This document shows positions 821-63,153 of a DNA stretch of 64,000 nt, piece after piece (position 1 is the stretch's first letter; each line of letters opens with the position of its first letter). The stretch covers positions 1 to 64,000 of the forward strand of contig JBAXJR010000007.1 of NCBI GenBank assembly GCA_037137755.1. Reading direction: 5' to 3'. The DNA comes from Methanomicrobiales archaeon. GTDB lineage: Archaea; Halobacteriota; Methanomicrobia; Methanomicrobiales; Methanospirillaceae. The notes beneath the pieces are model-generated. The model had not been told where the DNA came from. It worked only from the letters and a program-made list of their open reading frames with translations, and did not search any database. The position numbers and the translations under genes were made by a program.

Positions 821-834
821 TTCACAATTGTTAA
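821..834. promoter_or_regulatory. Palindromic operator copy TTCACAATTGTTAA upstream of cysK
   Basis: Lies between a TATA-like TATATA (~849-854) and the cysK start; same motif recurs at 5 other sites. Confidence 0.75.
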
Positions 835-1459
835 TTGTTAGACCCTGATATATACCTTGGTTTACTGGCCAAATCCAGGCATGTTTGCAATGGCCACATC
901 AGTGAACTACTACACCCGTGGAAAAATGAAAGATAGCGGCAAAATCTGACGCGAAATCAGAGTATATCATACCCTGGAACCCTATATTGTGTGTTCACAG
1001 GAGTGAACAGGAAACAGCCATGAACACACACCATGCGAATATCGCAGGACCCTCAGCTTATCCGGATATTTCCGGAGCCGCTGTCCACACTTTTCCTGGC
1101 ATCCGTCCGGGAAAGCCGGTTGTACGGTCCAGTGGTATCTGGAGCTCCGGGCAGTATTGTAGGCCAACGGAGCTTTCAAGGAACGACCCCCCAGAGACTG
1201 CTGCCCGCAAGTACTGCGGACGATCAGTAGTCCATGGTATGTGTCTGTGAAGATCATACCCCTGGTTACACATCCTCACAACCGTACCGGAGTTGTCATC
1301 CGGCTCACATATTTTCGTCATGAAATATCATCTCATTCAGGGCAGCACGCACCTGCTGTAATCTTGGGAGAAGCAGTAATTCTCCCCGGTATTCCGAAAA
1401 AATAAAACAATCTTTTTATGAAAAATAGTTTATAGAGAAAAAATAATTGAAGAAATGGG

Positions 1460-1533
1460 GCCGGTGTGGCAGAACGGATAAATGCCTTCGCCTGCAAAGC
1501 GAATGTCCGGAGGTTCGACTCCTCCCGCCGGCG
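1460..1533 (+). tRNA. tRNA-Cys(GCA), A37/G73 variant
   Basis: Acceptor GCCGGTG/CGCCGGC, anticodon arm TTCGC-CTGCAAA-GCGAA, T arm GGAGG-TTCGACT-CCTCC; TATA-like TTTATA at ~1429. Confidence 0.88.
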
Positions 1534-1554
1534 TCTAATGAAAGGTGTAAAAGA

Positions 1555-2814
1555 ATGAACTTATACAGCACGTTGTCAAGGATAGTTGAGCCACTTGAGA
1601 CCCTGAACCCGGACAGGGTCTCACTGTTTGTCTGCGGACCGACGGTATACGATTATTCTCACATGGGTCATGCCAGGACGTATGTAGTCTTTGATGTACT
1701 GGTAAAGTACCTCCGGTGGACGGGAAAAGAAGTCTTCTATCTCCAGAATATCACGGATGTGGATGACAAAATTATCAACCGTGCGAATGAGGAAGGTGTG
1801 TCCCAGAGTGTTCTCGCACGAAAGTTTGAAGCTGAATACCTGAGGGACATGCGATCGCTGGGAATAGATGCGGTCAGCTATTACGCCAGGGCAACCACCC
1901 ACATCCCGGAAATTGTTAACCAGGTGGAACGCCTGGTAGCCCTCGGTGTGGCATATGTAACGGAAAGCGGGGTATATTTCAACGTGGATACGTTCGAGCG
2001 CAACGGTGAACTGTCCGGCCAGGATGGAGCAAAACGTGTCAGCCGTGTGAATGACCCCTCAAAACATAACTCCCTCGATTTTGCACTCTGGAAGATCGGC
2101 GAATTCGGGGAGTACACGTGGGACTCTCCGTGGGGCAGGGGACGGCCCGGGTGGCACATCGAAGATACAGCGATATCTGAAAAGTACTTCGGGCAGCAGT
2201 ACGATATCCATGGAGGGGGGCTGGATTTGATTTTCCCTCACCATGAAGCGGAGATCTCCCAGATGGAATCGCTGGAAGGAAAACACCCGATGGTCAGGTA
2301 CTGGTTGCATACGGGGTTCCTGACAGTTAAAGGTGAGAAGATGTCAAAATCTCTTGGGAACTTTATCACCATCAGGGACGCACTCGGGACCTGGAATAAA
2401 GATGTACTAAGATATTTCATTCTCCTGTCCCACTACCGTTCCCCACTCCAGGCCACCGAGGAGGGTATAGCAAATGCGGCCCGGGTTCTTGAACATATCC
2501 GGTCAGTCGCCACAAAGGAAAGAGGTGAGAACCAGGAAGGGAGAAAAGCATTCACAGATGCCATGGACAATGACCTCAATACACCGATGGCTCTCGCGGC
2601 AATACATGCCCTCGCGGCAAGCGGGGATCTCGGGGCTTTGAAACAGTTCGGGGAGATTCTTGGGATTAATTTCCTGCGAGAGGCAAGTGCCCCTTTACAT
2701 GTACTCCAGGATATCCGGGCAGAGCTCCGTGCAAAAAAGCAGTTTGAAGTGGCGGACCTCATCCGGGAACGGATGGTCGCTGCGGGTATCACGATAACCG
2801 ATGCACCCCTGTGA
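1555..2814 (+). CDS. cysS: Cysteine--tRNA ligase (compact archaeal type)
   Basis: VCGPTVYD, HMGH, GRPGWHIEDTAI, HGGGLDLIFPHHEAE, KMSKS; start placed at ATG 1555 (SD AAGGTG) because the longer ORF overlaps the tRNA. Confidence 0.95.
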   Translation: MNLYSTLSRIVEPLETLNPDRVSLFVCGPTVYDYSHMGHARTYVVFDVLVKYLRWTGKEVFYLQNITDVDDKIINRANEEGVSQSVLARKFEAEYLRDMRSLGIDAVSYYARATTHIPEIVNQVERLVALGVAYVTESGVYFNVDTFERNGELSGQDGAKRVSRVNDPSKHNSLDFALWKIGEFGEYTWDSPWGRGRPGWHIEDTAISEKYFGQQYDIHGGGLDLIFPHHEAEISQMESLEGKHPMVRYWLHTGFLTVKGEKMSKSLGNFITIRDALGTWNKDVLRYFILLSHYRSPLQATEEGIANAARVLEHIRSVATKERGENQEGRKAFTDAMDNDLNTPMALAAIHALAASGDLGALKQFGEILGINFLREASAPLHVLQDIRAELRAKKQFEVADLIRERMVAAGITITDAPL

Positions 2815-3016
2815 CATGGTTTCCATCGCGTGAAATACCATTAATTATCCCGGGCATTACCCGGTAAGGCATCGCTCTTTTTTTCCTGTTTACACGATCT
2901 CCGGAACGATCAAACGTTTCCCTAATGGGATCTGGTACTCGGCTGGTATTCGTGAAAAAAAGCAGATTGTTGATTTTATATGGAAAACTATGTTGTTTTC
3001 AGGCTATCCATTGTTA

Positions 3017-3553
3017 TCAAAGGAGTGTCGGGTTCAGCATCCCGAAGATCATCGCGATGTGGGCAAACACGAGGAACGTAATGAGGAGGCTGATATGGTA
3101 TACCATATGACGTTCGGGAGGTGCGTTCTTTTTAATGATCCCAAGTTCCAGCAGGGCAATCGCAAGCAGGGGCAGGAAACCTGCTATGTAGAATCCGACT
3201 GCGATGACATCAATCGGACCACGCCAGACGATTGTCGGAATAACTGTTATCATAAGATACCCAGCGATCAGGGTAAAATAGATCCCGAGTGAAATTCCGA
3301 TATATCGGTTAACGGTACGCAGGGTGCCCGAATAATCTCGGTTGAACGCGACGAAAAATTCCGTGGCTGTCAGTGCCTCCGCCAGGATCACGGGGATCGC
3401 CATGAATAACAACAGGTTCCATGGCTGGTTGGTCATAAGCAACTGCATATAGTGGGTAACCTGCATCATCGGGTCCATGGCAGTTGCCGCCGTTGTCGCG
3501 GCAGCATGGGCGTGTTCCATCATTGTCGGGGTAACCATCGATTCCATATCCAT
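3017..3553 (-). CDS. DUF6803-like multi-pass membrane protein
   Basis: THYMQLL..NQPWNLLLFMAIPVILAE motif, about 4 TM segments, Met/His-rich N-terminus; SD GGAGA before ATG 3553. Confidence 0.7.
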   Translation of the reverse strand: MDMESMVTPTMMEHAHAAATTAATAMDPMMQVTHYMQLLMTNQPWNLLLFMAIPVILAEALTATEFFVAFNRDYSGTLRTVNRYIGISLGIYFTLIAGYLMITVIPTIVWRGPIDVIAVGFYIAGFLPLLAIALLELGIIKKNAPPERHMVYHISLLITFLVFAHIAMIFGMLNPTLL

Positions 3554-3569
3554 AGTATCTCTCCATTTA

Positions 3570-3583
3570 TTCACAATTGTGAA
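3570..3583. promoter_or_regulatory. Perfect palindromic operator TTCACAATTGTGAA
   Basis: Perfect 14-bp inverted repeat 16 nt upstream of the membrane protein start codon. Confidence 0.8.
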
Positions 3584-3694
3584 ATGTGAATTATTCTCGT
3601 TTGAACTGAATAGCTCATGAATTGTCTCGCAGTATCGTCTTAGTTATCATGGAAAGTGCGTAGGTGCAGGGCTGCTCCTGAAGCGGCAGGGAAT

Positions 3695-3997
3695 CTAAGA
3701 AAATTTTTTCCAGAAAGAATTCCGGTATTCAGCCTGGGAATTGTCCTCTTTTAAGTATTTTTCCCCTGGCTGGGGTTTATATTTATCCGGGTCATCCAAA
3801 GCCTTCTGACATTCATCCGATATGCTGAAACAATCTCCATCGCACTGCTTGGCAATTCGGCTCCTGATCTCCCTGACTTTTTCAAGTTTTTCAAGCCTCG
3901 TATTTATGTCATCAATTTTTTTGCCCTGCAGATCTATTGCTGCAAGCAGTTCATTCATTCGTGCAAGGATCTGTTTATCGGTTTCCTGTTCGTTCAT
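3695..3997 (-). CDS. Hypothetical protein, coiled-coil N-half with CDGDC..C motif
   Basis: 100 aa ORF with SD AGGAG and protein-like composition. Confidence 0.65.
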   Translation of the reverse strand: MNEQETDKQILARMNELLAAIDLQGKKIDDINTRLEKLEKVREIRSRIAKQCDGDCFSISDECQKALDDPDKYKPQPGEKYLKEDNSQAEYRNSFWKKFS

Positions 3998-4183
3998 GTT
4001 GCAAATCTCCTTTCTGATGCCTTCTTATACTCCGATATCAGTTAGTGTTTGCAGTGGTATGTTTCAAAAACACAATCTGGTAGACTCTCTGATTTCGGTG
4101 AGATTTTTTTAAAAAATTGTGTTTGAATGCACGTTAAAACAATTAACGTGCCAACAAATTGATTGCCCGCATCATCCGTCGCA

Positions 4184-4463
4184 TCATGCCAGAACTGCTT
4201 CCTGTTCTACGTTATTTAACCCATAAAGGCTCTGACGGGCGTCAATGAAATAATAACGCTCGATAAGGAAATTCTCAGTCTTCAGCCTTTTCAGGGCGTA
4301 CCTGACAGTCCTTGAAGGCAGAAGGGTTTTCTCTATCAGGTCCTTCTGTGTCAACTGACCGTCGGTTTGCAGTACCCTGTACACGAGCTTTGCCGATGGT
4401 GGCAGGTGCCCGATGTTTTTTAAGTTATTGCTGGTTGCTTTTACAACAAAAACGATCCCTCAT
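4184..4463 (-). CDS. Small winged-HTH (MarR-like) transcription regulator; frame discontinuity near 5' end
   Basis: HLPPSAKLVYRVL..LTQKDLIEKTLLPSRTVRYALKRL..DARQSLY. The LPPSAKL motif lies upstream of the GTG at 4384, and the SD-linked ATG at 4463 is in another frame (HTH frame is +1). Confidence 0.8.
4425..4463 (-). other. 12-codon leader ORF MRDRFCCKSNQQ* with tandem Cys codons
   Basis: AAGGTGA-TCCACT-ATG AGG GAT CGT TTT TGT TGT AAA AGC AAC CAG CAA TAA read on the minus strand. Confidence 0.6.
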
Positions 4464-4489
4464 AGTGGATCACCTTACCTAGGTGGTAG

Positions 4490-4503
4490 TTCACAATTGT
4501 TAA
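4490..4503. promoter_or_regulatory. Operator copy TTCACAATTGTTAA upstream of HTH regulator
   Basis: 26 nt upstream of ATG 4463; suggests autoregulation. Confidence 0.75.
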
Positions 4504-4712
4504 GTATTTCGGTAATCCTGTTTTTTCTATCCTGGACATTTCCACAAAAGGATTAGAAAATTTTGGTGTTCCTGTTTTTGGTGCACAATATTTACCGGGA
4601 TTACATACTATATACTATCCCATCGGAATGCGGCAATTACCCATTCATGTGAAAACCCGGGTGTACAACGACGTGAAAGAGAGATCAGGAAAAACCTGCC
4701 GGTGACCGAACC

Positions 4713-4762
4713 TATAAATATTCACAATTGTTACCTAGTATGGTAAAATTCACAATCGTGAA
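4713..4762 (+). promoter_or_regulatory. TATA box (TATAAATA) followed by two operator copies (4721-4734, 4749-4762)
   Basis: TATAAATA-TTCACAATTGTTAC...TTCACAATCGTGAA immediately before tRNA-Cys/pscS. Confidence 0.8.
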
Positions 4763-4774
4763 TTTTGATTACCT

Positions 4775-4846
4775 GCCAAGGTGGCGGAGTGGCCACGCGG
4801 CTGACTGCAGATCAGCTACACTCCGGTTCAAATCCGGACCTTGGCT
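4775..4846 (+). tRNA. tRNA-Cys(GCA), canonical methanogen G37/U73 type
   Basis: Acceptor GCCAAGG/CCTTGGC+T, anticodon arm GCTGA-CTGCAGA-TCAGC, T arm CCGG-TTCAAAT-CCGG. Confidence 0.95.
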
Positions 4847-4924
4847 TTCTCCAGGGATTTCTTCATAATCCTGAAGAAGAATAAAGATTCAGAAGCATAT
4901 CTTCATCGCAGTTGTGATTTAAGC

Positions 4925-6289
4925 ATGAGTATCAGAATCCAGAAAACATTTGAAGCGCTCTTCCAGCTCGAAGAAGTCCGGGGACTTTTCCGGGAGTCGC
5001 TACCAACCGGGTTGGATGCTGAAGAGGAAGCCACCTTCAGGAAGCGGATTGCTGATCTTAAGGCAATCGTTGCTGACCTCGAGGCGGGTACCGGCAGTCC
5101 TAAGGTGACAAAGATTGCCGGATCCATAGACTTGCGGACGAGGGAAGAGGAGTACATCAATATCCAGCCGATCCAGGCAGCTGGCCGGTTGACGACGGAG
5201 GCGAGGAAGGCCCTGATCTCCTACGGTGACGGGTACTCAACGTGTGATGCCTGCCGGAAACCATTTCGCCTTGATAAGATTTCCAAGCCGGGTATTGCGG
5301 AATTCCATGCTGATTTGGCAAAGTTTGTCAATATGGACCAGGCCAGGGTTGTTCCCGGTGCACGCCGTGGTTTCCAGGCTGTTGCCAGTACTCTCGTTGA
5401 GAAAGGCGATAGCGTAATTGTATCTGCCCTTGCCCACTATACAGAGTTCCTCTCAGTGGAAAATGCAGGGGGGGTTGTAAAGGAAGTACCACTGAATGAA
5501 AAGAATATCGTAACCGGCGAAGCAACGGCACAGAAGATCGAAGATGTCAAACGGGAGACCGGAAAACTCCCGGTGCTTGTGATGATCGACCACTTCGACT
5601 ACCAGTTCGCAAACGAGCATGAAGTAAAAGAGATCGGAAAAATTGCCCACCAGTACGACATTCCGTTCCTCTATAACGGGGCTTATACAGTTGGTATCCA
5701 GCCTGTTGATGGTAAGGCAATCGGAGCTGACTTTGTTGTCGGCTCCGGACACAAGAGTATGGCATCGGTCGCGCCGTCCGGGGTACTTGCAATGACCGAT
5801 GAATGGGCGCCAAAGGCGCTCCGTACGACCGCGATGGTTGGCGACCTTACCAAGCGTAAATTTGGTATCAAGGAAGTGGAAATGCTCGGGTGCACGCTGA
5901 TGGGCGGCACACTGCTCTCCATGATGGCATCGTTCCCTGCCGTTAAAGCCAGAACCCTGAAATGGGAAGAAGAAGTGAAGAAATCCAACTTCTTCATTGA
6001 CCGTCTTCTCAGGATCAACGGTAGCAGGGTGCTATCAGAGTATCCACGCAAACATACCCTGACAAAAGTTGATACAACCGGAAGCTTCGATACGGTTGCC
6101 CAGACTCACAAACGTCGCGGATTTTACTTCAGCGATGAACTCTCGTCGCGAGGAATTGTCGGTGAGTTTGCAGGTGCAACCAGGACATGGAAGCTGAATA
6201 CCTATGGCCTCAACGAGAAGCAGATCCACTACCTTGCGGATGCCTTCACAGAAATCGCAGAAAAATATGAGATCCCAGTCGCAAAGTGA
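4925..6289 (+). CDS. pscS: Sep-tRNA:Cys-tRNA synthase with N-terminal SepCysE-like domain (SepCysSN)
   Basis: INIQPIQAAGRLT, GDGYSTCDAC, GSGHKS (PLP Lys), LGCT; about 60 aa helical N-terminal extension. Confidence 0.93.
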   Translation: MSIRIQKTFEALFQLEEVRGLFRESLPTGLDAEEEATFRKRIADLKAIVADLEAGTGSPKVTKIAGSIDLRTREEEYINIQPIQAAGRLTTEARKALISYGDGYSTCDACRKPFRLDKISKPGIAEFHADLAKFVNMDQARVVPGARRGFQAVASTLVEKGDSVIVSALAHYTEFLSVENAGGVVKEVPLNEKNIVTGEATAQKIEDVKRETGKLPVLVMIDHFDYQFANEHEVKEIGKIAHQYDIPFLYNGAYTVGIQPVDGKAIGADFVVGSGHKSMASVAPSGVLAMTDEWAPKALRTTAMVGDLTKRKFGIKEVEMLGCTLMGGTLLSMMASFPAVKARTLKWEEEVKKSNFFIDRLLRINGSRVLSEYPRKHTLTKVDTTGSFDTVAQTHKRRGFYFSDELSSRGIVGEFAGATRTWKLNTYGLNEKQIHYLADAFTEIAEKYEIPVAK

Positions 6290-6367
6290 GCCTGTGAAGA
6301 AAATTACCAGGTCCGGTTCGGAATGCATTCAGGACCGATCATGATACCGGCTATTTCAGGTATATAA

Positions 6368-7738
<1,371 letters not shown>

Positions 7739-7823
7739 GAGAGAAAAAGTCCTTAATACGTCAGCTTGAGGACTGCCGGGACAAGTTTATAGTAAATACC
7801 CGGATTTAACAGGGGATATCCAG

Positions 7824-51756: not shown

Positions 51757-52326
51757 TTAACCCTGGATATTGCTATCCTGATTTATGAAGCAGAACGGGT
51801 CTTCTGCTGAAAAATTGCCGGTTCGGGCGTAGGCACGGACCCTGCAGCCTCCTCCGCAGAGAGGAAAATAACCACAATCCCTGCATTTTCCCCCGATTGA
51901 TTGATTTTTGGCCCGAAAACGGTCGAGAACGGGATGAGAGTCATCTGACCAGATCCCTGAAAAAGGACGTTATCGGATGTTTCCGCTTATAGCCACTGTT
52001 TTAATCCCAGCCTCATGGAGCTTTGCCGCTTTCGTCTGATCGATAAGTATCCCGCTCGTGCCCATGACCCTCCGGAGCCCCCGTTCTGTACCGTACCGGG
52101 CGATATCAAAGCTGTCCTCCCTCATAAGGGGTCCTCCTCCGCTCAGCACAACTACGGGTTTCCCGGTCTCGCAAATCTGGTCGACAACGCCGAACGCTTC
52201 CTCAGTGGAGAGCACTCCGTCTACCTCACGAACACCTGCGTCCACGTAACAGTGGGCACATTTCAGTGGGCACCGGAGCGTGATGTTCCACGAGATAATA
52301 CGTGGGCCGTTTACTCCACTTTTCAA
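51757..52326 (-). pseudogene. Radical SAM/SPASM (AhbC/NirJ-like) pseudogene
   Basis: WNITLRCPLKCAHCY N-terminus joined directly to GNIR*RPF..KCRDC..LCGGGCRVRA..DPFC; large internal deletion plus in-frame TAA at 51970-51972. Confidence 0.85.
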
Positions 52327-52404: not shown

Positions 52405-54807
<2,403 letters not shown>

Positions 54808-55890: not shown

Positions 55891-56583
55891 ATGAAAGTAT
55901 CACGTTCTCTTCTGAATAAGATAGACTTATTAATTGTTTTCATCTTCGAGTTGCTATTTCTCGGCCTTGCTCTATGGGCGGTCGAGATTGGTGATATGGG
56001 GCGGTTTTTTACCGTACTTGCCTCCATGGTGATAATCCTTGTTCCCTTAGCTGTTGAAAAAGTGTTAAAAATAGTCCTGCCATTCGGGGTGAAAAGTATC
56101 ATTTCTATGTCGCTCTTCCTCCATATCGCCGGGGGAGTCATGCGATGGTACTGGTCGCCAACGTTTCCTCTTTATAACCAGGTCGCCCATTTTGTCTCTG
56201 GATTGGCAGTTGGCCTGATAATTTTCGTGTTTTTTATATTCCTCGACGCTTATGGCATCAGGTTTAAACGCTCAACTATCCTTATTTCGATATTCCTCCT
56301 GATGGCATTCTTCGGTGGATTGTGGAAAATCGGGGAGGTATCCTCTGATGTTTTTTACCACACCTACTATAATGACGGGCTCTCCAACCTGATAGCGTGC
56401 GATTTCAGCCATACCATTGGATCAATAGCAGCCGTAACCGTTTCCTGGCTGTATTTTCTCTCCATTCCTGAAGGTGAAGGCCTTTATTACCTGTTAAGAC
56501 CTTTTAAGGAGAGAAAGAAGATTTTAGATAGATCAAAAAACGGGTCGAAAACGCAGAGCCACACCATCCCTGATGGGAAATAA
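55891..56583 (+). CDS. Multi-pass membrane protein
   Basis: About 6 TM segments; LH..G...WY...Y.QVAHFVSG motif. Confidence 0.7.
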   Translation: MKVSRSLLNKIDLLIVFIFELLFLGLALWAVEIGDMGRFFTVLASMVIILVPLAVEKVLKIVLPFGVKSIISMSLFLHIAGGVMRWYWSPTFPLYNQVAHFVSGLAVGLIIFVFFIFLDAYGIRFKRSTILISIFLLMAFFGGLWKIGEVSSDVFYHTYYNDGLSNLIACDFSHTIGSIAAVTVSWLYFLSIPEGEGLYYLLRPFKERKKILDRSKNGSKTQSHTIPDGK

Positions 56584-56652
56584 TCTCTTAATCTAACGTT
56601 AGTAGAAAAAATCAAATAACATATCTGCGTGTACTCGCAGAAGGTTTTGATC

Positions 56653-57411
56653 ATGACGATAACTATTGAGCCTGTTAACGGACTTCCCCTGATCCATGAG
56701 GGAGATGACCTGCCTGCAATGATTGCAGAACGAATCGGTATCCGGGATGGTGATATCCTCTGCATTGCATCATCGGTTTACTCAAAATCGAAAGGGTATA
56801 CCCGCAGGCTTAATGATATTACACCAACGGAACGAGCGATCAGGATTGGGAAGATGACAGGGGAAGACCCCCGTTTTCTCCAGGGTGTGCTTGATGCATC
56901 AACTGATATCCTCCTTGAATACCCGTTCATCCTCTCTGAGGTCGCTGGTGGACATATCGGCGTACGTGCCGGGGTCGACCAGAGTAACATTGATGACGGG
57001 ATGATCATTCTCCTCCCTCCCGACTCGATGAAGGCTGCAACAGCGGTAAGAGATCGTATTAAGGTGCTCAATGGCTGTGATATCGGGGTTATCATTACCG
57101 ATACGGTGGGAAGGGCCTTCAGACGCGGGCAGACCGGAAACGCGATTGGTTGGAGCGGTATGTCTGCAATACGCGACTTCCGGGGTGATACCGACCTCTT
57201 CGGACACGTTCTGAAGATCACGGAAGAGGCCGTCGTTGACGAGATTGCCGGGTTTGCGAACTTTATCATGGGTGAGAGTAACAACGGCGTTCCGGCGGTT
57301 GTCTTCCGGGGATGTGAAAAATGGAAGGGGCATGATGATCTCTTCTACCATGCTGATGAGGATATTATCCGGAAATCATTATGCTCAGGGGAACCCCCTG
57401 CTCAAAGGTGA
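56653..57411 (+). CDS. cofE: Coenzyme F420:L-glutamate ligase
   Basis: LPLIHEGDDL, AGVDQSN, ITDTVGRAFRRG, D.RG.TDLFG, DEIA. Confidence 0.92.
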   Translation: MTITIEPVNGLPLIHEGDDLPAMIAERIGIRDGDILCIASSVYSKSKGYTRRLNDITPTERAIRIGKMTGEDPRFLQGVLDASTDILLEYPFILSEVAGGHIGVRAGVDQSNIDDGMIILLPPDSMKAATAVRDRIKVLNGCDIGVIITDTVGRAFRRGQTGNAIGWSGMSAIRDFRGDTDLFGHVLKITEEAVVDEIAGFANFIMGESNNGVPAVVFRGCEKWKGHDDLFYHADEDIIRKSLCSGEPPAQR

Positions 57412-57687
57412 TGCCGGATTTATATCCTGAATCATCACATTTTTGATGAATAATCATTTTTCAACCTACCTGCTTTTTTTTGTGAATGGTATTTTCTGGA
57501 GCAGGGAAAAATTCTTTTCAGCAGTCATTCCGGGTATATTCAAACACCTTCGCCGAATACTGGCAGGAGCGGGGAATTCAAAGACAATATGCCGCATTTT
57601 GTAACACCCTGCAAAGAGCTTGGTCAATTCGGTAATCTTCATTTACTAGTATGACATATGTTAACAATTGACACGGTGGGATTGCAG

Positions 57688-58416
57688 ATGCTTGTCGCAC
57701 ATCAGGTAAAGAAAAAGTTCGGGGGCCTTGTTGCGGTGCAGGATGTAGACCTGACCCTTCACGAAGGAGAAATACTTGGGCTTGTAGGTCCCAATGGAGC
57801 GGGAAAGACAACACTCCTCAATATCATATCCGGCCTCTACCAGCCTGACAACGGTACTATTCATTATAAGGGCGAGAATATCACCGGCCTTTCACTGAAC
57901 AAGCTCTGCAAGAAGGGAATAGCCAAGACCTTCCAGCACCCCCAGTCCTTTCCAGGCATGCTGGCAGCTGAAGCGGTAATGGTCAGTGCAATATTTGGTA
58001 ACCATCACAAGGTCGGTATGAAGGATGCCCGAGAGGAGGCAATAGGCCACCTCGAATTTGTAGGTTTTCCAAAGGACAAGATCGATGCACCACTTTCCCA
58101 GCTTAACCTCATGGAGTTGAAGCGTATCCAGCTGGCCCGGGCCCTTGCTTCCAGGCCAAAACTCCTTCTCATGGACGAACTCACCACCGGGCTTAACCCG
58201 AACGAGAGCGGTGAAGCCATCAGCCTGATAAAAAAGATCCGGGACGACGGGACAACCATTATGCTGATAGAGCATGTAATGAGAGTCATTACCGGTGTTT
58301 CCGACCGCATCGTGGTGCTGGACCACGGTGAAAAAATTGCGGAAGGCACACCCCTCGATGTCCTCAATGACCAGCGGGTAATAGATTCATACCTTGGCGA
58401 AAAATATACTACCTAG
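57688..58416 (+). CDS. livG: Branched-chain amino acid-type ABC ATPase (LivG-like)
   Basis: FGGLVAV, GPNGAGKTT, LIEHVM, IAEGTP..V..SYLG. Confidence 0.88.
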   Translation: MLVAHQVKKKFGGLVAVQDVDLTLHEGEILGLVGPNGAGKTTLLNIISGLYQPDNGTIHYKGENITGLSLNKLCKKGIAKTFQHPQSFPGMLAAEAVMVSAIFGNHHKVGMKDAREEAIGHLEFVGFPKDKIDAPLSQLNLMELKRIQLARALASRPKLLLMDELTTGLNPNESGEAISLIKKIRDDGTTIMLIEHVMRVITGVSDRIVVLDHGEKIAEGTPLDVLNDQRVIDSYLGEKYTT

Positions 58417-58426
58417 AGGTCAATTT

Positions 58427-59122
58427 TTGCTCAGGATAGAACATCTGGATGTCTGCCACGGTAACCTGCACGTGGTCTGGGACCTGTCACTTGCGGTCCG
58501 GAAAGGTGAGATCGTTACGCTCCTTGGACCAAACGGTGCAGGAAAAACAACATTTGTCGAGACAATCATGGGGCTTAACCGGAGTGCCCGGGGTTCCATA
58601 CAGTTTGAAGACCAGGAGATCCTGGGACTACAGACCTACGAGATCGTCAAGAGAGGTATTGCACTCGTTCCGGAAAAAAGAGAACTCTTCCCAAAAATGT
58701 CAGTCCGGGAGAACCTGAGCCTTGGTGGTCACCTGAAAGTGCGTGGTACGAGCAATCCAGAAACAGTACTTGACATGTTCCCGGTCCTCAAGGAAAGGCA
58801 GGACCAGCTTGCCGGTACATTATCCGGGGGCGAGCAACAGATGCTGGCAATTGGCCGAAGCCTGATGTTAAACCCGAAATTGCTGGTACTTGATGAACCC
58901 TCACTTGGTCTTTCCCCGCTGTTTGTAAAAAGTGTGCTGGAATCGGTAGCAAAACTCAATGAATCAGGCCTTTCTATCCTGCTCCTTGAACAAAACGTAA
59001 TGCATGCCCTCGAAATTTCGCACCGTGGATATGTCCTCGAGAACGGAAGGATCACGATCCAGGGAACTGCACAGGAGCTCCTCGATAACCAGGAGATACA
59101 GGCATGCTATCTGGGGCTTTGA
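58427..59122 (+). CDS. livF: Branched-chain amino acid-type ABC ATPase (LivF-like)
   Basis: GPNGAGKTT, AGTLSGGEQQMLAIGR, DEPSLGL, EQN; TTG start after GAGGT. Confidence 0.88.
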   Translation: MLRIEHLDVCHGNLHVVWDLSLAVRKGEIVTLLGPNGAGKTTFVETIMGLNRSARGSIQFEDQEILGLQTYEIVKRGIALVPEKRELFPKMSVRENLSLGGHLKVRGTSNPETVLDMFPVLKERQDQLAGTLSGGEQQMLAIGRSLMLNPKLLVLDEPSLGLSPLFVKSVLESVAKLNESGLSILLLEQNVMHALEISHRGYVLENGRITIQGTAQELLDNQEIQACYLGL

Positions 59123-59225
59123 AGGACAGGATAAGAAAAACAGGTTAATTAAAATTTAAGGACCGTGAGTATTTCCAGCTTGATGTAATCTCCCGTGCCG
59201 CCACCTTTCAGTATTTTAGGAAAAA

Positions 59226-60209
59226 TTATTTTTGAAGAAGTTTATTGAACCGTGCCCTCCATACGGGCGCCCTTTTCTTGATAACTTCCGGAAGGGAGAC
59301 CAGTCCGCGTGGCAGGAATATTACAACGAGGACGAGGATAACACCGATAATGATGAACCTGCCATAGGTAAGACCGAGCGACTGGAGGCCATCCCACAGG
59401 AGCGTAATCACAATTGTCCCGATGATCGGCCCCGCGAGTGTACCGAGCCCGCCACTTATGGAATAAATAATCGGCCAGAACGAGATATCAACGCCAAATA
59501 TTTCGGGTGTGACATAACCGAGATAGTGGATTTCCAATGCACCTGCAAGGCCGGCAAAATATGCACTTACCATGAATGCGAACAATTTGTACCTGACCGG
59601 ATCAATCCCCGATGCACGGGCTTCCAGTTCATTTTCCCGGATCGCAGAAAATGCAAGGCCTATTTTGGAATTTAAAATTGTCCTGAACAGGAGTATAACA
59701 ACCACTGCGATAAGCAGGATGGAATAATACTCGTACACGAGGTAGTTCGGCACCGTATTGCTGATCAGTGGCGGTGCTGCAACACCATCCCAACCCCCGG
59801 TGACAGAACTGAACTGGCTTGCCACCAGTACCTGGATAATAACGGCAAACCCGAACGTGACCATGGCGAGGAACCATTCCTTCATCCGCACACAGATCGC
59901 TCCAATAAAAAGCCCGGCTAAGGCCGCAGCTGCCCCCCCGATAAAAATTGTCAGGTATGGAGTGAGGCCGCTTTTCACCGCGATCAGGGTAGAGATGTAC
60001 CCTCCAATCCCGAAGAACGCAGCATGCCCAAGAGATCCCTGGCCGCTATAGGTAAGGAAGTTCCAGGCGGAGGCAAAGATGATAAAAATGACCATCAGGA
60101 TAAGAACGGTCAAGTAATACATGTTCAGCCCGGTGAAAAGGGGAAAAAGGATCGCAAAAGCAAGCGTAGCAATGGTGAGGTACAGGACAACACGGTTCTT
60201 TTCCATCAT
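59226..60209 (-). CDS. livM: ABC permease (LivM-like)
   Basis: GQGSLGHAAFFGIGGY, TGGWDG, AIRENE, GGLGT..GP. Confidence 0.88.
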   Translation of the reverse strand: MMEKNRVVLYLTIATLAFAILFPLFTGLNMYYLTVLILMVIFIIFASAWNFLTYSGQGSLGHAAFFGIGGYISTLIAVKSGLTPYLTIFIGGAAAALAGLFIGAICVRMKEWFLAMVTFGFAVIIQVLVASQFSSVTGGWDGVAAPPLISNTVPNYLVYEYYSILLIAVVVILLFRTILNSKIGLAFSAIRENELEARASGIDPVRYKLFAFMVSAYFAGLAGALEIHYLGYVTPEIFGVDISFWPIIYSISGGLGTLAGPIIGTIVITLLWDGLQSLGLTYGRFIIIGVILVLVVIFLPRGLVSLPEVIKKRAPVWRARFNKLLQK

Positions 60210-60215
60210 ATCTCT

Positions 60216-61097
60216 TCACTCCGCCTTTTCTCCGAACAGCCCGTTCGGCTTGATTATGAGAACTATTATTAAAATGAGGAATGCAACCGCGTCCTTCCAG
60301 GCACCCCCGATCGTTAAAACGGTGAAATTTTCAGCAATCCCCAGGATAAGACCCCCGATGATCGCACCGGGAATGCTCCCGAGTCCTCCGATAATTACAA
60401 TGGCGAAGGCCTTGACCGCAGGCACAGAGCCCATGTACGGGTTGAACACCTGGCCGCTGACCACCCAGAGTGTCCCTGCCGCCCCGGCAAGCCCGGCCCC
60501 GATACCAAAACTCAGCATGTCCATCCGTTCGACGTTGATCCCCACCAGCATTGCTGCCTTCCGGTTCTGGCTGGTCGCACGGACTGCCAGACCGAGCCGT
60601 GATTTCTTCAGGAATATGTAGAGTCCTACAAGGATCAACACCGTCGTGACAATGATAATGAGATAATCCACGGGGATTTTCATACTCCCGATCGTAACCG
60701 TAATCTCTTCGAACGGGCTCCGGATGGTTTTCCATTCATCAGTCCATATCATGGCAGCCACATTTTCGAGAATATATATAAGGCCGATACTGATGAATAT
60801 CTCGTTTAATTTCCCCGTTCCAAGAATAGGACGGAAACATAGCCGCTCTATGCACACACCGATTACGATCAGGATGGGGATTGATGCCGCCAGCAGGACA
60901 TAGGGATTGAAACCCGTGAGAACAAAGAAAGAAAAGGTCACATACGCCCCGATCATGAGCAACTGGCCATGGGCAAAGTTTACGACTTTCATTACACCGA
61001 AAATCAGGTTGAGACCTGTTGCGAGAAGGATATAGATGCATCCGGCATATAACCCCCATACCAAAACCTGCAGGAAGATATCAAGGCCGATTTCCAT
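60216..61097 (-). CDS. livH: ABC permease (LivH-like)
   Basis: GLNLIFGVMKVVNFAHG, G.AVRA..QN, IIGGLGS. Confidence 0.88.
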   Translation of the reverse strand: MEIGLDIFLQVLVWGLYAGCIYILLATGLNLIFGVMKVVNFAHGQLLMIGAYVTFSFFVLTGFNPYVLLAASIPILIVIGVCIERLCFRPILGTGKLNEIFISIGLIYILENVAAMIWTDEWKTIRSPFEEITVTIGSMKIPVDYLIIIVTTVLILVGLYIFLKKSRLGLAVRATSQNRKAAMLVGINVERMDMLSFGIGAGLAGAAGTLWVVSGQVFNPYMGSVPAVKAFAIVIIGGLGSIPGAIIGGLILGIAENFTVLTIGGAWKDAVAFLILIIVLIIKPNGLFGEKAE

Positions 61098-61145
61098 TTC
61101 TCATTCCCTCCGGGGGTACTATAAAAAAATTGGTGTTACAAGGGA

Positions 61146-62465
61146 TTATGCTTTACCCGGGACATACCAGTCAGGGAGCACAAAGTCACTTTCTTTTAGG
61201 TTAGCTGGTGAGACGATCTTCGGTCTCGTTTCATTTACCGCCGGATCCCATGCCAGTTGCTCCATGGTAAGATCGAATTTACTTTCCCTGAAATCTTTTG
61301 AGAAACTGATTGTCTGGCCCTGCATCGCCTCGACTACCTGGGGCATCTGCAGGTCTGCAATCGCATTCTTAACGGCAGTTTTATTCAATGAACCAGCATT
61401 TTCGACCGCCTTCGCACCAATATAAACCCCTTCGTAGGTCGCTACACCCATCATTCCTGGGAACCCGCCGAATTTCTTATCGAAATCTGAAACGAATTTT
61501 TTGTATGCGGCTTCGGTCGGCCCTTTTGGAACAGTATATGGGCTGAAACGGCTCTGTATTATCGAGTAGTCCCCGTATTTCCCGACACCCTTATAGAAAT
61601 CGGGGTCATCATTCGGCTCAATGGCGATAAAGATCTTTTTGAGGTCAACATCTCTCATCGCCTGTGTCTCGATGGGGATCTGTTCGTTTAAGAATGCTGC
61701 GACGTAGACGACATCGGGGTCAGATCCCTTGATGCTTGTCAACGCTGTCCTGAAGTCACTCTCACCCATTTTAAATGTCTCCTGTGAGACAAGGTTGATT
61801 TTCAGACTATTATTGGCGATCGTGTTCTTTACTGCTTCAAGATGGCCTTTTCCATACGGACTGTCCTGGTAGAGCACAGCAAGCTTCAGTGGCCGGTCCT
61901 GCGGGTACCCGAATTTTGCATTGATAGCCGGACGGATGACCGTATCGATAAATAACGTGGTCTGGCTCCCGGAATCATCAGTTGTCGGCGCGTGGTGGAA
62001 CATGTAACTTGTATTCACATCAGTCCTGCGAGTGATGACAGGGGTTGAAGCCCCGGTAATAATATAGGGCACATTATGCTCGGCAACAATTGACTGGTGG
62101 GCCGAAACAACGGCACTCGAGAATCCCCCGACCAGCATGTCGACATTATCCTGGGTAAGCATCCTTGATACTGCCTTCTGGCCGCCTTCCCGGGTTGATT
62201 CATCATCGCCCTGCACCAGCACGATCGGGACACTTTTACCGAGATCTTTTACATAAACCCCGCCTTTGGCGTTGATCTCCTCGGCTGCAAGCTGTGCGGA
62301 TTGCCAGACATCTTTTCCGGTAGTACTTGACGGTCCGGTCAATGACGCCACAACACCAATCTTAAGATTCTGGGCTGGTGCCGTCGGTGCCTGCTGGGTG
62401 CAACCTGCAAGGAATGCACCAATTACGACCATTCCAATCAATAAGAACACATATGTTTGTTTCAT
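61146..62465 (-). CDS. ABC substrate-binding lipoprotein (LivJ/K family)
   Basis: LAGC lipobox, KIGVVASLTG, AAEEINAKGG. Confidence 0.88.
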   Translation of the reverse strand: MKQTYVFLLIGMVVIGAFLAGCTQQAPTAPAQNLKIGVVASLTGPSSTTGKDVWQSAQLAAEEINAKGGVYVKDLGKSVPIVLVQGDDESTREGGQKAVSRMLTQDNVDMLVGGFSSAVVSAHQSIVAEHNVPYIITGASTPVITRRTDVNTSYMFHHAPTTDDSGSQTTLFIDTVIRPAINAKFGYPQDRPLKLAVLYQDSPYGKGHLEAVKNTIANNSLKINLVSQETFKMGESDFRTALTSIKGSDPDVVYVAAFLNEQIPIETQAMRDVDLKKIFIAIEPNDDPDFYKGVGKYGDYSIIQSRFSPYTVPKGPTEAAYKKFVSDFDKKFGGFPGMMGVATYEGVYIGAKAVENAGSLNKTAVKNAIADLQMPQVVEAMQGQTISFSKDFRESKFDLTMEQLAWDPAVNETRPKIVSPANLKESDFVLPDWYVPGKA

Positions 62466-62654
62466 TTAGTATCCTCTGCCATGCTATTGCATAGCAAGGT
62501 TCGTCATGTCATAGTATAAATATTCCCATTTATGGTTCAGACCAAAAACTGAAGAAGGGTGATGTAAAAACCTGAATTGCATGGAAAAAAAGCTGGTGAA
62601 TTTTTATAACGATGTACAAATCCCAATAATTGCCTTTCAAAAAAAGGGGAGATT

Positions 62655-63004
62655 TCAGGATTTTCCAAAATATGCTTTTACCTGTGGCTGGAACAGGTAG
62701 TAAAGGATGATCGCCGCGATAATAATCCCGAACAGTGCACCTGCCCCTGCCGAGAACAGGTTAAAAATGCCAATGATGATACTAACCGCTGAAAATATAA
62801 CCTCGACCGTGCAGACCCAGGGCCATGCCATGAAACATCCACCCCCAGGGATAAGGTAGACGACACCGACGATGAAAGCAACGATTCCAATGGCGGCACC
62901 GAAGCCGGCGACGCTCAGGGTGGCCCCGCTTATGAAATCGCTAACCTTTCCCCTATAATCCAGAGGATTCCAATAATTGTTACTCCTAATGGCCTTTCTG
63001 ACAT
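62655..63004 (-). pseudogene. Frameshifted small membrane protein
   Basis: MSERPLGVTIIGILWI in one frame and hydrophobic ...IILYYLFQPQVKAYFGKS* in another; span 350 nt. Confidence 0.65.
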
Positions 63005-63139
63005 ACTATTCCATTCATCGGAACATACTCATGTGTTGTTATTCAAGAGAAACGAAAATTATTGAATTATTGGTAAAGTTAAAGGATCCTACCCCCACAC
63101 TCGACGTTTAGGTTTGAAATAGCTCTCAAGTCAATAATT

Positions 63140-63153
63140 GTAACAATTGTGAA
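63140..63153. promoter_or_regulatory. Operator copy (reverse complement TTCACAATTGTTAC) upstream of cysteine desulfurase
   Basis: GTAACAATTGTGAA is the exact reverse complement of the 4721-4734 copy. Confidence 0.75.

Follow-up and report, generated by a model that had tools for sequence, protein, structure and literature searches.

The window (the whole stretch of DNA that was analysed, 64 kb) holds the following genes and promoter elements, and the searches confirm the gene identities given in an earlier note on this DNA (cysK, DUF6803, HTH, tRNA-Cys, pscS and desulfurase).

3..764, minus strand: cysK, O-acetylserine sulfhydrylase, truncated at the contig start; PALP E 2.2e-66; TIGR01139 377 bits, over cut-off
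821..834: cysK promoter operator TTCACAATTGTTAA, 57 nt upstream of the ATG
about 848-855, minus strand: TATA GTATATAT of cysK, 13 nt upstream of operator 821..834
3017..3553, minus strand: membrane protein of the DUF6803 family, 178 aa if begun at ATG 3553; PF20617 E 2.5e-60
3570..3583: operator free of mismatches, its distance to the DUF6803 ATG downstream being 17 nt
3584-3590, minus strand: extra half-site-like TTCACAT beside the DUF6803 operator
4184..4459, minus strand: winged-helix (wHTH; HTH_24) reading frame, 28.3 bits vs 21.9 cut-off
4425..4463, minus strand: zero-frame leader ORF MRDRFCCKSNQQ, ending in a stop, behind Shine-Dalgarno GGTGATCC (plus-strand 4467-4474)
4446..4454, minus strand: proposed +1 shift site CGU-UUU-UGU, the subsequent codon likewise UGU
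4490..4503: wHTH promoter operator TTAACAATTGTGAA (gene strand)
4713..4720, plus strand: tRNA-Cys-pscS promoter, TATA box TATAAATA
4721..4734: operator O1, directly adjoining this TATA box; roughly -22 to -9 relative to the inferred start
4749..4762: operator O2, about +6 to +19; ends 12 nt before the tRNA
4775..4846, plus strand: tRNA-Cys(GCA), downstream of the double operator and upstream of pscS
4925..6289, plus strand: SepCysS (pscS), Sep-tRNA:Cys-tRNA synthase; TIGR02539 394.5 bits vs 365 cut-off
6440..7738, plus strand: O-acetylhomoserine sulfhydrylase (homocysteine synthase), pscS operon; TIGR01326 653.8 bits
7824..9314, plus strand: homoserine O-acetyltransferase MetX with CBS pair, pscS operon; NF001209 524 bits; CBS E 3.2e-26
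63140..63153: weaker operator GTAACAATTGTGAA, with the SufS-like gene beginning 72 nt downstream
63225..64000, plus strand: SufS-family cysteine desulfurase, extending past the window to contig position 64391; Aminotran_5 E 1e-110 (TIGR01979 359.6 bits, below the subfamily cut-off of 475)

A palindrome at promoters of sulfur genes

The 14-base palindrome TTCACAATTGTGAA matches at exactly six places when up to two mismatches are allowed, at 821 (one mismatch), 3570 (none), 4490 (one), 4721 (two), 4749 (one) and 63140 (two), with no further match at this threshold within the 64 kb window. These are the six intergenic sites that the earlier note had listed, and all six are indeed intergenic. By chance far fewer are expected: 100 dinucleotide-preserving shuffles averaged 0.24 matches, the highest count was 2, and none reached six. 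The whole assembly (2.64 Mb) contains four exact, three one-mismatch and fourteen two-mismatch sites; all seven with at most one mismatch are intergenic and sulfur-linked, whereas nine of the fourteen two-mismatch sites fall inside long ORFs, about as chance predicts. The genome-wide scan that the earlier note had proposed was run with a PWM trained solely on 69 sites of relatives, and it returned twelve matches of at least 16 bits in this genome, versus zero to two in five shuffles, all twelve intergenic. They lie at cysK, two DUF6803 genes, wHTH, tRNA-Cys-pscS (two sites), the SufS-like gene and NifS, and further at the HTH_3-LarE operon (beside cysE), fdhD and two DUF7507-like genes, with scores of 23.9 bits at cysK, 26.5 bits at DUF6803 site 3570 and 17.2 bits at 63140. 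Other contigs are reached through NifS, cysE/LarE, the second DUF6803 gene and fdhD. The DUF6803 paralogue on contig C95 (1637-2173) has the same operator, with an exact site at 2191. Site 3570 in the window is overlapped only by an unlikely GTG-extended DUF6803 ORF, and the ATG at 3553 is preceded by a GGAGAG Shine-Dalgarno.

At the tRNA-Cys-pscS promoter O1 and O2 are spaced 28 bp centre to centre. A TATA-like sequence occupies the same place in ten of ten aligned SepCysS promoters (exactly TATAAATA in five), and the order TATA, O1, 12-18 bp, O2 is found in 7 of the 10 (7 of 9 genomes), O1 being degenerate or missing in the remaining three. Genomes G005, G016 and G017 have the arrangement of double operator, tRNA-Cys and pscS in common, and in every copy from Methanomicrobiales the wHTH operator begins 39-42 nt, in most cases 40, ahead of the ATG. 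As read from these alignments, the motif is placed between the TATA box and the predicted transcription start, often in two copies, which is the geometry of a repressor. The earlier note had described this geometry at cysK and pscS, where sites just downstream of TATA are seen in both cases, and had pointed to a tRNA gene under operator control; tRNA-Cys does lie behind the double operator.

With at most one mismatch the motif is present in 25 of 31 and in 52 of 101 genomes of the methane-producing archaeal order Methanomicrobiales, the reversed-pattern control giving zero to two matches per genome. Targets that recur in the neighbourhoods of 16 relatives are the SepCysS operon, cysK-cysE, NifS-NifU-ThiF, SufS-ThiF and NadA, and likewise ThiS/MoaE, LarE-FdhD, radical SAM and TauE. 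In six families of the order the palindrome is confined to sulfur and Fe-S genes, and conservation of the sequence flanking it ends after one or two bases. On this comparative evidence, TTCACAATTGTGAA is a conserved cis-element, predicted to define a cysteine, sulfur-mobilisation and Fe-S regulon of Methanomicrobiales. A shared regulator of cysteine synthesis, tRNA-dependent cysteine formation and cysteine desulfuration, as proposed earlier, is supported in that the regulon is conserved order-wide, and phylogenetic comparison, also proposed in the earlier note, finds the motif kept at the same kinds of genes.

The reading frame of the wHTH gene

The wHTH gene at 4184-4463 is, by its sequence, a predicted member of the regulon and not a broken gene. 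Its frame, which is +1 relative to the AUG at 4463, is open from a TGA overlapping the ATG to the stop codon at 4184-4186, and within 4184..4459 the first start codon in it is the GTG at 4384. Among the 84 readable copies, which come from four methanogen/ANME lineages, 83 carry a short AUG-opened frame reading ...CGU-YUU-UGY (Arg-Phe/Leu-Cys) with wHTH in the +1 frame. No ATG, GTG or TTG precedes the conserved helix in the wHTH frame in 61 of 81 copies; the other 20 have a possible start codon, mostly GTG inside ATGAGTG. Codon choice at the site, derived from wHTH sequences found through homology to one another, is narrow: the +1-frame Val codon is GTT in 46, GTC in 34 and never GTA or GTG, which account for 66% of the other Val codons of the wHTH genes, Phe is TTT in 79 of 79 versus 28% elsewhere, and Cys is UGU in 51 versus UGC in 29. 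These synonymous-site constraints appear to fit P-site re-pairing as in prfB. The Methanoperedens form has three extra leader codons, and its AUG is still in frame with the shift site. The T5 run at the shift site has no indels in independent DNA contigs covering it; the coverage of RNA contigs matching the window does not include the wHTH gene. In 60 wHTH loci all 27 tRNA genes, spread over 21 loci, are tRNA-Cys, and neighbours of wHTH elsewhere are sulfonate-type ABC binding proteins, sulfite reductase, CysRS, MetW and OAH sulfhydrylase.

It seems that wHTH is readable only through a one-base slip of the ribosome at a cysteine codon. wHTH is probably a target of the candidate repressor described below, translated from the AUG at 4463 via a programmed +1 frameshift at CGU-UUU-U/GU. 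An alternative, which we regard as unlikely, holds that no frameshift takes place, wHTH beginning in its own frame at a weak or non-canonical start (GTG, else ATC) and the AUG leader being a competing uORF. In accordance with a direct start, ATGAGTG puts GTG in the wHTH frame in 16 of 80 copies, public annotation begins some copies at GTG (e.g. the Mpal_2425 homologue) or ATC (P0158), and L077, the sole copy without a slippery codon, has the GTG. Yet most copies offer no canonical start (absent in 61/81), the Shine-Dalgarno is spaced for the AUG, and ATC lies 5 nt further off and is a poor start codon next to an AUG. A direct start also leaves unexplained why Val is GTY only, why Phe is TTT only, why the overlapping zero-frame codon is always Cys and why the AUG frame is kept relative to the site despite three inserted codons.

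The candidate regulator

The palindrome follows the distribution of a protein encoded outside the window:

contig C66, 7163-7504: HTH_3 (XRE-type) protein, 114 aa, in front of a LarE-like sulfur transferase

This protein has an invariant Cys6 and Cys88-x-x-Cys91 (CxxC); on Pfam HTH_3, P0002 scores 22.3 bits, slightly below the 23-bit cut-off. By manual tally over relatives, which are not independent samples, it is present in 36 of 37 motif-rich genomes (at least two sites), and of the 41 genomes that lack it, 40 have fewer than two sites, G052 having two sites and no HTH_3 match. Fewer than two sites accompany the protein in 24 of 60 genomes, which 13-bp or TTAAC operator variants partly explain in those genomes where they were looked for; G098 has seven sites of the 14-bp type, but a 13-bp operator at its sole detected HTH_3 gene. 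The palindrome lies about 45 bp upstream of the HTH_3 gene in at least 13 genomes, and an inverted repeat built on TTCAC or TTAAC was found at 17 and 2 further HTH_3 orthologue promoters, all that were examined, the repeat being imperfect in 6 of 7 loci of genus g28. The half-site goes with the recognition helix, TTAAC with TPxAxSQY and TTCAC with APSAVSQY. Two Methanoperedens genomes have neither protein nor palindrome, and both are present in one genome each of Methanocellaceae, Methanothrix and Methanoculleus. Most likely, the palindrome is where a small, uncharacterised repressor rich in cysteine docks. That the palindrome would serve as operator of a dimeric repressor, the HTH_3 protein and not wHTH, which blocks recruitment of the transcription machinery at its own gene and the regulon, we consider very likely. 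Less firmly, the cysteines of this protein may bind an Fe-S cluster or form a thiol/persulfide switch. Structure comparison found no solved structure resembling the HTH_3 protein, and because of this its DNA-binding mode and cofactor are guesses.

The earlier note had named the HTH at 4184-4463 as prime regulator on the ground that its own promoter carries the site. The site is there, but this is equally true of the HTH_3 protein, and the assignment is probably wrong, as the motif tracks the HTH_3/CxxC protein instead; the shared regulon, the geometry and the tRNA-Cys operator of that interpretation stand. That wHTH binds the palindrome as auto-regulated master repressor of the regulon is quite improbable, even though its operator keeps a near-fixed distance (39-42 nt) to the ATG in every Methanomicrobiales copy, its gene adjoins the tRNA-Cys-pscS operon, all 21 cassette-bearing genomes are motif-rich, and the Methanoperedens upstream element GWCAATAATTGCTC has an ACAAT...ATTG core in common with the palindrome. 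With orthologues recognised by the frameshift cassette, its occurrence in 21 of 101 genomes versus 37 motif-rich ones speaks against wHTH as master regulator. The 16 of 37 motif-rich genomes without the cassette include G071 (14 sites) and G029 and G098 (7 each); together with G086 and G019 these lack it despite 4 to 14 sites. Close orthologues turned up in only 8 of 31 relatives, versus the motif in 25, and the promoters of relatives in two Methanoperedens genomes have no TTCAC palindrome. Moreover, the sites are in repressor positions, and more repressor under Cys-tRNA shortage would silence cysteine genes when they are needed.

Similarly improbable is joint action of HTH_3 and wHTH on the operator, as co-repressor/anti-repressor or hetero-oligomer, HTH_3 reading the outer TTCAC/GTGAA and wHTH modulating. 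In at least 22 of 31 genomes two paralogues stand side by side, a wHTH gene (about 77 aa) and some 55 nt later an HTH_3-like gene (about 122 aa), and therefore the two families tend to work paired; G005 and G008 also have both regulon genes about 5 kb apart in one sulfur island. On the other hand, 16 genomes have the regulon without a cassette-bearing wHTH. As to a non-regulatory palindrome (a mobile-element repeat, a restriction/modification target or a factor-less promoter-associated sequence), it does contain CAATTG, and short AT-rich palindromes are more frequent between genes, but this reading deserves hardly any credence and is already close to refuted by the register fixed relative to TATA box and start codons, the restriction to sulfur and Fe-S genes in six families, the flanks unconserved beyond one or two bases and the co-variation with a DNA-binding protein.

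Proposed mechanism and known systems

Taken as a whole, the explanation we favour (regulon, HTH_3 repressor, wHTH frameshift and sensor) is a probable one. An HTH_3 dimer on the palindrome would keep the transcription machinery from being recruited and in this way repress both its own gene and the regulon. With less certainty, its DNA binding would report sulfur or Fe-S sufficiency, and upon shortage the regulon would be de-repressed. At the shift site Arg CGU would occupy the E site, Phe UUU the P site and Cys UGU the A site. The P-site CUU or UUU is followed by U, so that the tRNA could re-pair on UUU: peptidyl-tRNA-Phe would do so while the A-site Cys codon waits, and in other copies tRNA-Leu on CUU would take its place. 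More speculatively, and here we are in some doubt, the shift rate might rise with scarce Cys-tRNA(Cys), such that full-length wHTH would be made solely under de-repression combined with Cys-tRNA shortage and would act on tRNA-Cys and sulfur-acquisition genes. The tRNA gene of the shift-site codon adjoins the shifted gene, which suggests a feedback loop. If true, a programmed +1 frameshift may sense Cys-tRNA supply.

IscR (Rrf2 family, [2Fe-2S]) and SufR are bacterial auto-regulated repressors of cysteine desulfurase and Fe-S scaffold genes. As in these systems, the regulator gene stands at the head of an operon or next to it, sensing probably falls to Cys residues, and the operators are palindromes that overlap promoters. 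Unlike them, the protein here is an HTH_3-like five-helix protein, versus an Rrf2 or DeoR winged helix, and as an archaeal regulator it would therefore act on a TBP/TFB promoter; the regulon adds cysteine and homocysteine synthesis, SepCysS together with a tRNA gene, NadA, and the sulfur carriers for molybdopterin and thiamine. CymR, which needs CysK and O-acetylserine, and CysB, a LysR-type activator, are bacterial cases in which, likewise, a single factor adjusts cysK, cysE, sulfur uptake and methionine genes to the sulfur supply, but there is no sequence relation to them and the geometry here indicates repression. SurR of Thermococcales, too, is an archaeal CxxC factor tying sulfur status to transcription. 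SurR contains two winged helices and recognises GTTn3AAC, and the genes it switches are those for hydrogenase and sulfur reduction, whereas the targets here belong to cysteine and Fe-S biosynthesis, and no homology is expected.

The programmed +1 frameshift of prfB (RF2) occurs at CUU-UGA-C. The wHTH site resembles it in having P-site CUU or UUU and then U, a slow A-site codon starting with UG, a Shine-Dalgarno-like stretch (GGGAUC / GUGAUC) 2 nt upstream and, as proposed here, an output set by the availability of the factor decoding the A-site codon. The available text of a 2021 review (PMC8211752) gives one proven archaeal frameshift only, of -1 type. Unlike in prfB, the gene belongs to an archaeon, the A site would hold a sense codon (Cys) in place of a stop, the shift site lies at codon 5-6 of the gene, and the product is a transcription factor versus the factor being sensed. 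The Ty1 +1 frameshift takes place at CUU-AGG-C, and 'hungry codon' shifts are laboratory cases; in both, as proposed for wHTH, a scarce tRNA for the A-site codon drives the shift, but they need a constitutively rare tRNA or artificial starvation, whereas here the cognate tRNA gene adjoins. Finally, T-box leaders and leader-peptide attenuators, of which none were found for archaea in the literature searched, similarly read tRNA charging or amino-acid supply via a short leader rich in cognate codons; they act on transcription termination, whereas the wHTH leader would act on the reading frame.

A probable operator shared by sulfur and cysteine genes

We find the 14-base palindrome TTCACAATTGTGAA, here called the operator, at window positions 821, 3570, 4490, 4721, 4749 and 63140, the very coordinates that an earlier note on this DNA had listed at up to two mismatches; the 64-kb window has no other match. 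Shuffled windows yielded a mean of 0.24 matches, and none of 100 shuffles reached six. The flanking genes are likewise those the earlier note had named: cysK, DUF6803, an HTH gene, tRNA-Cys-SepCysS and a distant cysteine desulfurase. Further operators lie on other contigs (C) of the same assembly.

Operator-bearing genes of the window and of the rest of its assembly
3-764, minus strand: cysK
beside an operator in the window: DUF6803 membrane protein gene
4184-4463, minus strand: winged-helix (HTH_24) gene, below called wHTH
4775-4846: tRNA-Cys, followed by SepCysS (pscS), O-acetylhomoserine sulfhydrylase and MetX-CBS
58 kb from the other operator-bearing genes of the window: SufS-like cysteine desulfurase
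C41, outside the window: operator before a NifS cysteine desulfurase
C95, outside the window: operator before a second DUF6803 gene
C66, outside the window: operator before a small HTH_3 gene, then a LarE-like ATP-dependent sulfur transferase

The HTH_3-LarE unit of C66 lies directly downstream of a cysE-SufT fusion. The whole assembly (2.64 Mb in 106 contigs, of which C7 is that of the window, 90.6% complete; names on the nearest homologues are Methanoregula sp. and Methanomicrobiales archaeon) contains four exact, three one-mismatch and 14 two-mismatch operators. The seven sites with no or one mismatch all lie between genes, and nine of the 14 two-mismatch sites fall within long ORFs, about the number expected by chance. 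A genome-wide scan with a weight matrix trained on 69 sites, all from other genomes, returns 12 matches at a cut-off of 16 bits, all 12 intergenic, against 0-2 in five shuffles. The additional matches are one 186 nt upstream of fdhD and two before paralogous DUF7507-like genes.

Other elements accompany the operators. An extra TTCACAT (gene strand) abuts the exact operator upstream at both DUF6803 promoters (window 3584-3590, C95:2205-2211) and is kept between the two paralogues; DUF6803 itself has no match in NCBIfam. Three copies of CAATAATTG are found in the 510 bp upstream of the SufS-like gene (window 62624, 62971 and 63132), the last of them abutting the operator at 63140; this sequence, considered as a wHTH site, occurs 60 times genome-wide, where base composition by itself would predict about 21. 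An ORF of 100 aa (3695-3997, minus strand), with a C-x3-C-x7-C motif and no family match in Pfam or NCBIfam, separates the wHTH gene from DUF6803. Its N-terminal half looks like a coiled coil, and the relative G006 has an ORF of the same length at the same place (L041:563-865).

The motif is conserved in relatives. At one mismatch or less it is present in 25 of 31 genomes from six families, in which the reversed pattern gives 0-1 match per genome, and in 52 of the 101 genomes, each at least 90% complete, of an even sample of the class. Beyond the 14 core bases only an adjoining A and T are mildly conserved. We scanned 145 ORFs flanking sites in 16 relatives against Pfam; as these loci were picked for holding sites, they show the identity of the targets and not the frequency of sites per gene. 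SepCysS-OAH sulfhydrylase-MetX, with a ThrRS-editing-domain protein, DUF1890 and DUF1894 often lying downstream, is a recurrent target, as are cysK-cysE, NifS-NifU-ThiF, SufS-like-ThiF, NadA, ThiS/MoaD-MoaE, ThiN-AIRS, an HTH_3-LarE(-FdhD) operon, radical-SAM genes and TauE. The operator precedes NifS-NifU in five genomes (G005, G014, G017, G019, G030) and NifS alone in three (the window's own genome G000, G001, G029). These comparisons of sequence support the shared sulfur and cysteine regulon proposed in the earlier note, and the observation behind it is stronger than that note had it.

Alignment of ten SepCysS promoters from nine genomes reveals a common layout in seven, a TATA box directly followed by a first operator (O1) and, 12-18 bp on, a second (O2); O1 is degenerate or absent in G008, G014 and G016b. 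With the start placed by the usual archaeal TATA-to-start spacing, O1 would cover about -22 to -9, O2 about +6 to +19 and the cysK operator about -10 to +4. Archaeal repressors that block polymerase recruitment occupy such positions, and the repressor-like geometry that had been suggested for these promoters therefore stands. A tRNA-Cys gene intervenes between O2 and pscS in four of these promoters (G000, G005, G016, G017), which would place the tRNA for operator control, as the earlier note had supposed. The tRNA and pscS may share a transcript; contigs from one RNA run cover only the tRNA (4773-4847) and part of pscS (4982-5100), separately. The 76-nt spacer between them (4847-4924) is replaced by an 11-nt sequence in some contigs of three DNA runs, which looks like strain variation in related populations. 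A second tRNA-Cys(GCA) at 1460-1533, without an operator, lies 21 nt upstream of cysS (CysRS, 1555-2814), and the two tRNA-Cys genes are identical at only 39 of 74 aligned positions. Each thus precedes the gene of its own Cys-tRNA-forming enzyme, CysRS or SepCysS; the genome encodes both SepRS and CysRS.

The protein that may bind the operator

The earlier note took wHTH for the prime candidate regulator, as its own promoter carries the site. This is equally true of the HTH_3 gene of C66 (7163-7504), and comparisons between genomes favour the latter. Among the 101 genomes, which are related and hence not independent samples, 37 have at least two sites and 36 of these encode the HTH_3 protein (E<=1e-15), while 40 of the 41 genomes that lack the protein have fewer than two. 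wHTH, recognised by its unique DNA cassette, is found in 21 of the 101 genomes, all 21 motif-rich; 16 other motif-rich genomes, including G071 with its 14 sites, are without the cassette. Neither the HTH_3 protein nor the palindrome is present in two Methanoperedens genomes with wHTH, and one genome each of Methanocellaceae, Methanothrix and Methanoculleus has both protein and palindrome.

HTH_3 genes carry the operator about 45 bp before their start in at least 13 genomes. At 17 more orthologue loci, in genomes with few or no 14-bp sites, a related repeat occupies the same place without exception: TTAACAATTGTTAA, the 13-bp TTCAC-N3-GTGAA or, in genus g28, mostly TTCACAGCGAGAA. One Methanoculleus and one Methanocellaceae record also have such a repeat at the HTH_3 gene's own promoter. 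The half-site varies together with the recognition helix, TTAAC being found with T-P/Q-x-A-x-SQY and TTCAC with APSAVSQY. In 24 genomes the protein is present yet fewer than two sites are found, and operator variants account for some of these. At loci L011, L021, L022 and L030 of GC-rich relatives the HTH_3 genes, hidden under longer spurious ORFs, were located by tblastn. G098 has seven 14-bp sites, yet its sole detected HTH_3 gene carries a 13-bp operator, ATTCACGGCGTGAAT; in G052, which has two sites, the search gave no match to HTH_3.

The palindrome's repressor positions also speak against wHTH as its binder: a repressor that rises when Cys-tRNA is short, as suggested below for wHTH, would shut cysteine genes at the wrong time. 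From sequence comparison, wHTH is most likely a target of the regulon rather than its master, and the master regulator is probably an undescribed Cys-rich repressor of the XRE type. A paralogous pair is present as well, a wHTH of about 77 aa followed some 55 nt on by an HTH_3-like protein of about 122 aa (G000:C16:51800-51988 and 52048-52299; L040). The two genes are neighbours in at least 22 of 31 relatives, which suggests that the two families work in pairs.

The HTH_3 protein (P0002) has 114 aa and is annotated only as 'transcriptional regulator'. It scores 22.3 bits against Pfam HTH_3 (PF01381; cut-off 23), and the orthologue of G008 scores 27.8; a precomputed PF01381 match exists for some database homologues, not most, and a scan of NCBIfam returns nothing for this protein or for wHTH. 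Cys6, Cys88 and Cys91 are invariant in all 24 aligned sequences, and most have a fourth cysteine. IscR and SurR are the known regulators by analogy with which these residues may bind a cluster or form a thiol switch. An internal TGA in the HTH_3 gene of G022, G027 and G030 was considered as selenocysteine and is a real stop, past which the alignment had run. The AlphaFold (AF2) model has five helices, a pLDDT of 81 and a disordered tail. Foldseek against the PDB gives nothing at E<=0.001, the top rows, which fall short of this threshold, being weak HTH proteins including XRE, HigA and C.Esp1396I, and phmmer against the PDB gives only HigA (E 0.57). The ESM Atlas neighbours are unnamed HTH_3 clusters only, which fits a wider archaeal family.

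A conserved, predicted shift site in the winged-helix gene

The domain of wHTH matches HTH_24 with 28.3 bits in a 66-aa ORF (gathering cut-off 21.9). The frame that begins at ATG 4463 ends after 12 codons (MRDRFCCKSNQQ), and the domain lies in the +1 frame, which is open from a TGA overlapping the ATG and whose first start is a GTG that would remove the first helix. The layout is identical in all eight copies from six relatives. To these we added 80 loci from named public records of Methanoregulaceae, Methanosphaerula, Methanoculleus, Methanospirillaceae, Methanocalculus, Candidatus Methanoperedens, Methanocellaceae and Methanosaeta. Of 85 copies, 80 were parsed with a relaxed pattern, four were read by eye and one is cut at a contig end; of the 84 that are readable, 83 have a zero-frame AUG leading to YUU-UGY, with wHTH in +1. 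UUU (46), CUU (33) or CGU (1) is the slippery codon of the 80 parsed copies, always preceded by CGU and always followed by a Cys codon (UGU 51, UGC 29). All four copies read by eye have TTT-T, and in one of them UGU precedes the slippery codon.

Codon choice across the overlap is constrained. In 80 of 80 copies the wHTH frame uses GTT or GTC for the Val that overlaps the slippery codon, while 66% of Val codons elsewhere in these genes are GTA or GTG; only T or C at this position yields UUU or CUU in the zero frame, and, as established for prfB, the tRNAs for UUU and CUU can move by +1 and re-pair on UUU. For the overlapping Phe, TTT is used in 79 of 79 copies versus 28% elsewhere, and TTC would ruin the U run as well as the Cys codon. 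The leader of one Methanoperedens form is longer by three codons (M-x-x-R-R-N-R-L-C), its AUG remaining in register with the shift site. The GTY restriction, the invariant TTT and the frame-keeping AUG argue that the zero frame is read as far as the Cys codon and that the tRNA slips there. Conservation stops just after this codon. A Shine-Dalgarno sequence, GGTGATCC, is spaced to suit the AUG, and every copy has GGGAUC, GUGAUC or GGAAUC ending 2 nt upstream of the P-site codon, bases that also encode conserved residues in both frames.

Translation of wHTH might instead begin directly at GTG or ATC, with no frameshift. ATGAGTG, which has a GTG in the wHTH frame, is present in 16 of 80 copies, among them L077, the sole copy that lost the slippery codon, which agrees with this reading. 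Public records are inconsistent in this respect, taking GTG, ATC or an internal GTG as the start and, owing to this choice, giving lengths of 66 to 95 aa. Direct initiation, however, accounts for none of the three constraints, and in 61 of 81 copies the wHTH frame lacks ATG, GTG and TTG upstream of the conserved HLPPSAKLVY helix. Transcriptional slippage is unlikely, since 33 copies have only CTTT, and an assembly or sequencing error at the T5 run is contradicted by the same layout in 83 of 84 copies from many assemblies and by independent DNA contigs without an indel. The 'truncated' wHTH gene thus reads as a conserved, predicted +1 recoding cassette built on a Cys codon rather than as a broken gene. 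The inconsistent public records probably need recoding annotation; automatic names in the family include 'transcription initiation factor IIE alpha subunit'.

A tRNA scan of 60 wHTH loci, 1.5 kb on each side, found 27 tRNA genes in 21 loci, every one of them tRNA-Cys(GCA). In Methanoregulaceae the tRNA gene is divergent from wHTH, often in two copies, and in Methanoperedens it follows on the same strand within about 60 nt. Outside Methanoregulaceae the neighbours encode sulfonate-type ABC binding proteins (four loci), a sulfite-reductase-like protein, CysRS, MetW, OAH sulfhydrylase, MoaE and nitrogenase-like proteins. A RACo-like activase gene lies beside the recoded wHTH in Methanosphaerula subterraneus and two Methanoculleus records (L048, L082, L086), the latter two also having a nitrogenase-like (Oxidored_nitro) gene; our guess is that these neighbours may belong to a nitrogenase-like sulfur-salvage system. 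In Methanoperedens (L094-L123) a conserved GWCAATAATTGCTC, palindromic as CAAT-A-ATTG, lies about 75 nt before the shift site, with the wHTH(-tRNA-Cys) unit's TATA box about 10 nt downstream of it. L096 and L113 have a second copy elsewhere. It is a candidate for wHTH's own site.

A possible two-key circuit and its relation to known systems

Given that tRNA-Cys is the only tRNA found beside wHTH and that sulfur genes are its neighbours, we speculate that frameshifting is tuned by the supply of Cys-tRNA(Cys). The ribosome would start at the AUG of the five-codon leader and, when Cys-tRNA(Cys), which these organisms form on the tRNA from a sulfur donor, is scarce, would pause at one or two Cys codons. 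The P-site tRNA could then slip +1 on U-UUU or C-UUU, and only then would the winged-helix regulator be made, its gene being wired presumably, in Methanomicrobiales, Methanoperedens, Methanocellaceae and Methanothrix, to genes for tRNA-Cys and sulfur acquisition. Above this layer, a Cys-rich and possibly Fe-S repressor of the XRE type would make transcription a readout of sulfur or Fe-S status, and below it the reading frame would report the charging of one tRNA. Such a two-key circuit, in which a sense-codon version of the RF2 frameshift serves archaea as an amino-acid sensor under a Cys-rich repressor, we consider possible and somewhat short of probable.

Next to nothing has been described of how methanogens control sulfur assimilation, tRNA-dependent cysteine formation and Fe-S supply. 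In the passages covered, a 2021 survey of methanogen Fe/S pathways names no regulator (PMC8351635), and a 2021 recoding review counts a single proven programmed frameshift for archaea, of the -1 type, and brings up +1 only for a haloarchaeal virus and a predicted Mg-chelatase case (PMC8211752). Our literature search, which covered work outside subscription journals, found no regulator for these three processes, nor any paper on the operator, the cassette or the HTH_3/CxxC regulator. The locus offers a testable circuit, with a defined operator and a candidate repressor family found widely among archaea, none of whose members has been described, and the target list ties DUF6803, DUF1890/DUF1894 and the LarE-like transferase to sulfur metabolism. 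If true, the cassette would provide the first instance of programmed +1 frameshifting in a gene of archaeal cells and a natural case of a reading frame that gauges the supply of one aminoacyl-tRNA.

Two known systems invite comparison. In prfB the A-site codon of the shift is a stop, whereas that of the wHTH cassette is always Cys, at which decoding would be slow; GGGAUC or GUGAUC of the cassette resembles the internal stimulator of prfB, its constraint being inseparable from coding. With IscR of the Rrf2 family the HTH_3 protein shares an operator at its own gene, in every orthologue examined, and operators at cysteine desulfurase and scaffold genes, which it would bind. P0002 differs from IscR in having no Rrf2-type winged helix, the Pfam scan showing HTH_3 only, and the Fe-S cysteine ligands of IscR would have their counterpart in the invariant C6, C88 and C91, with a putative role in holding a cluster.
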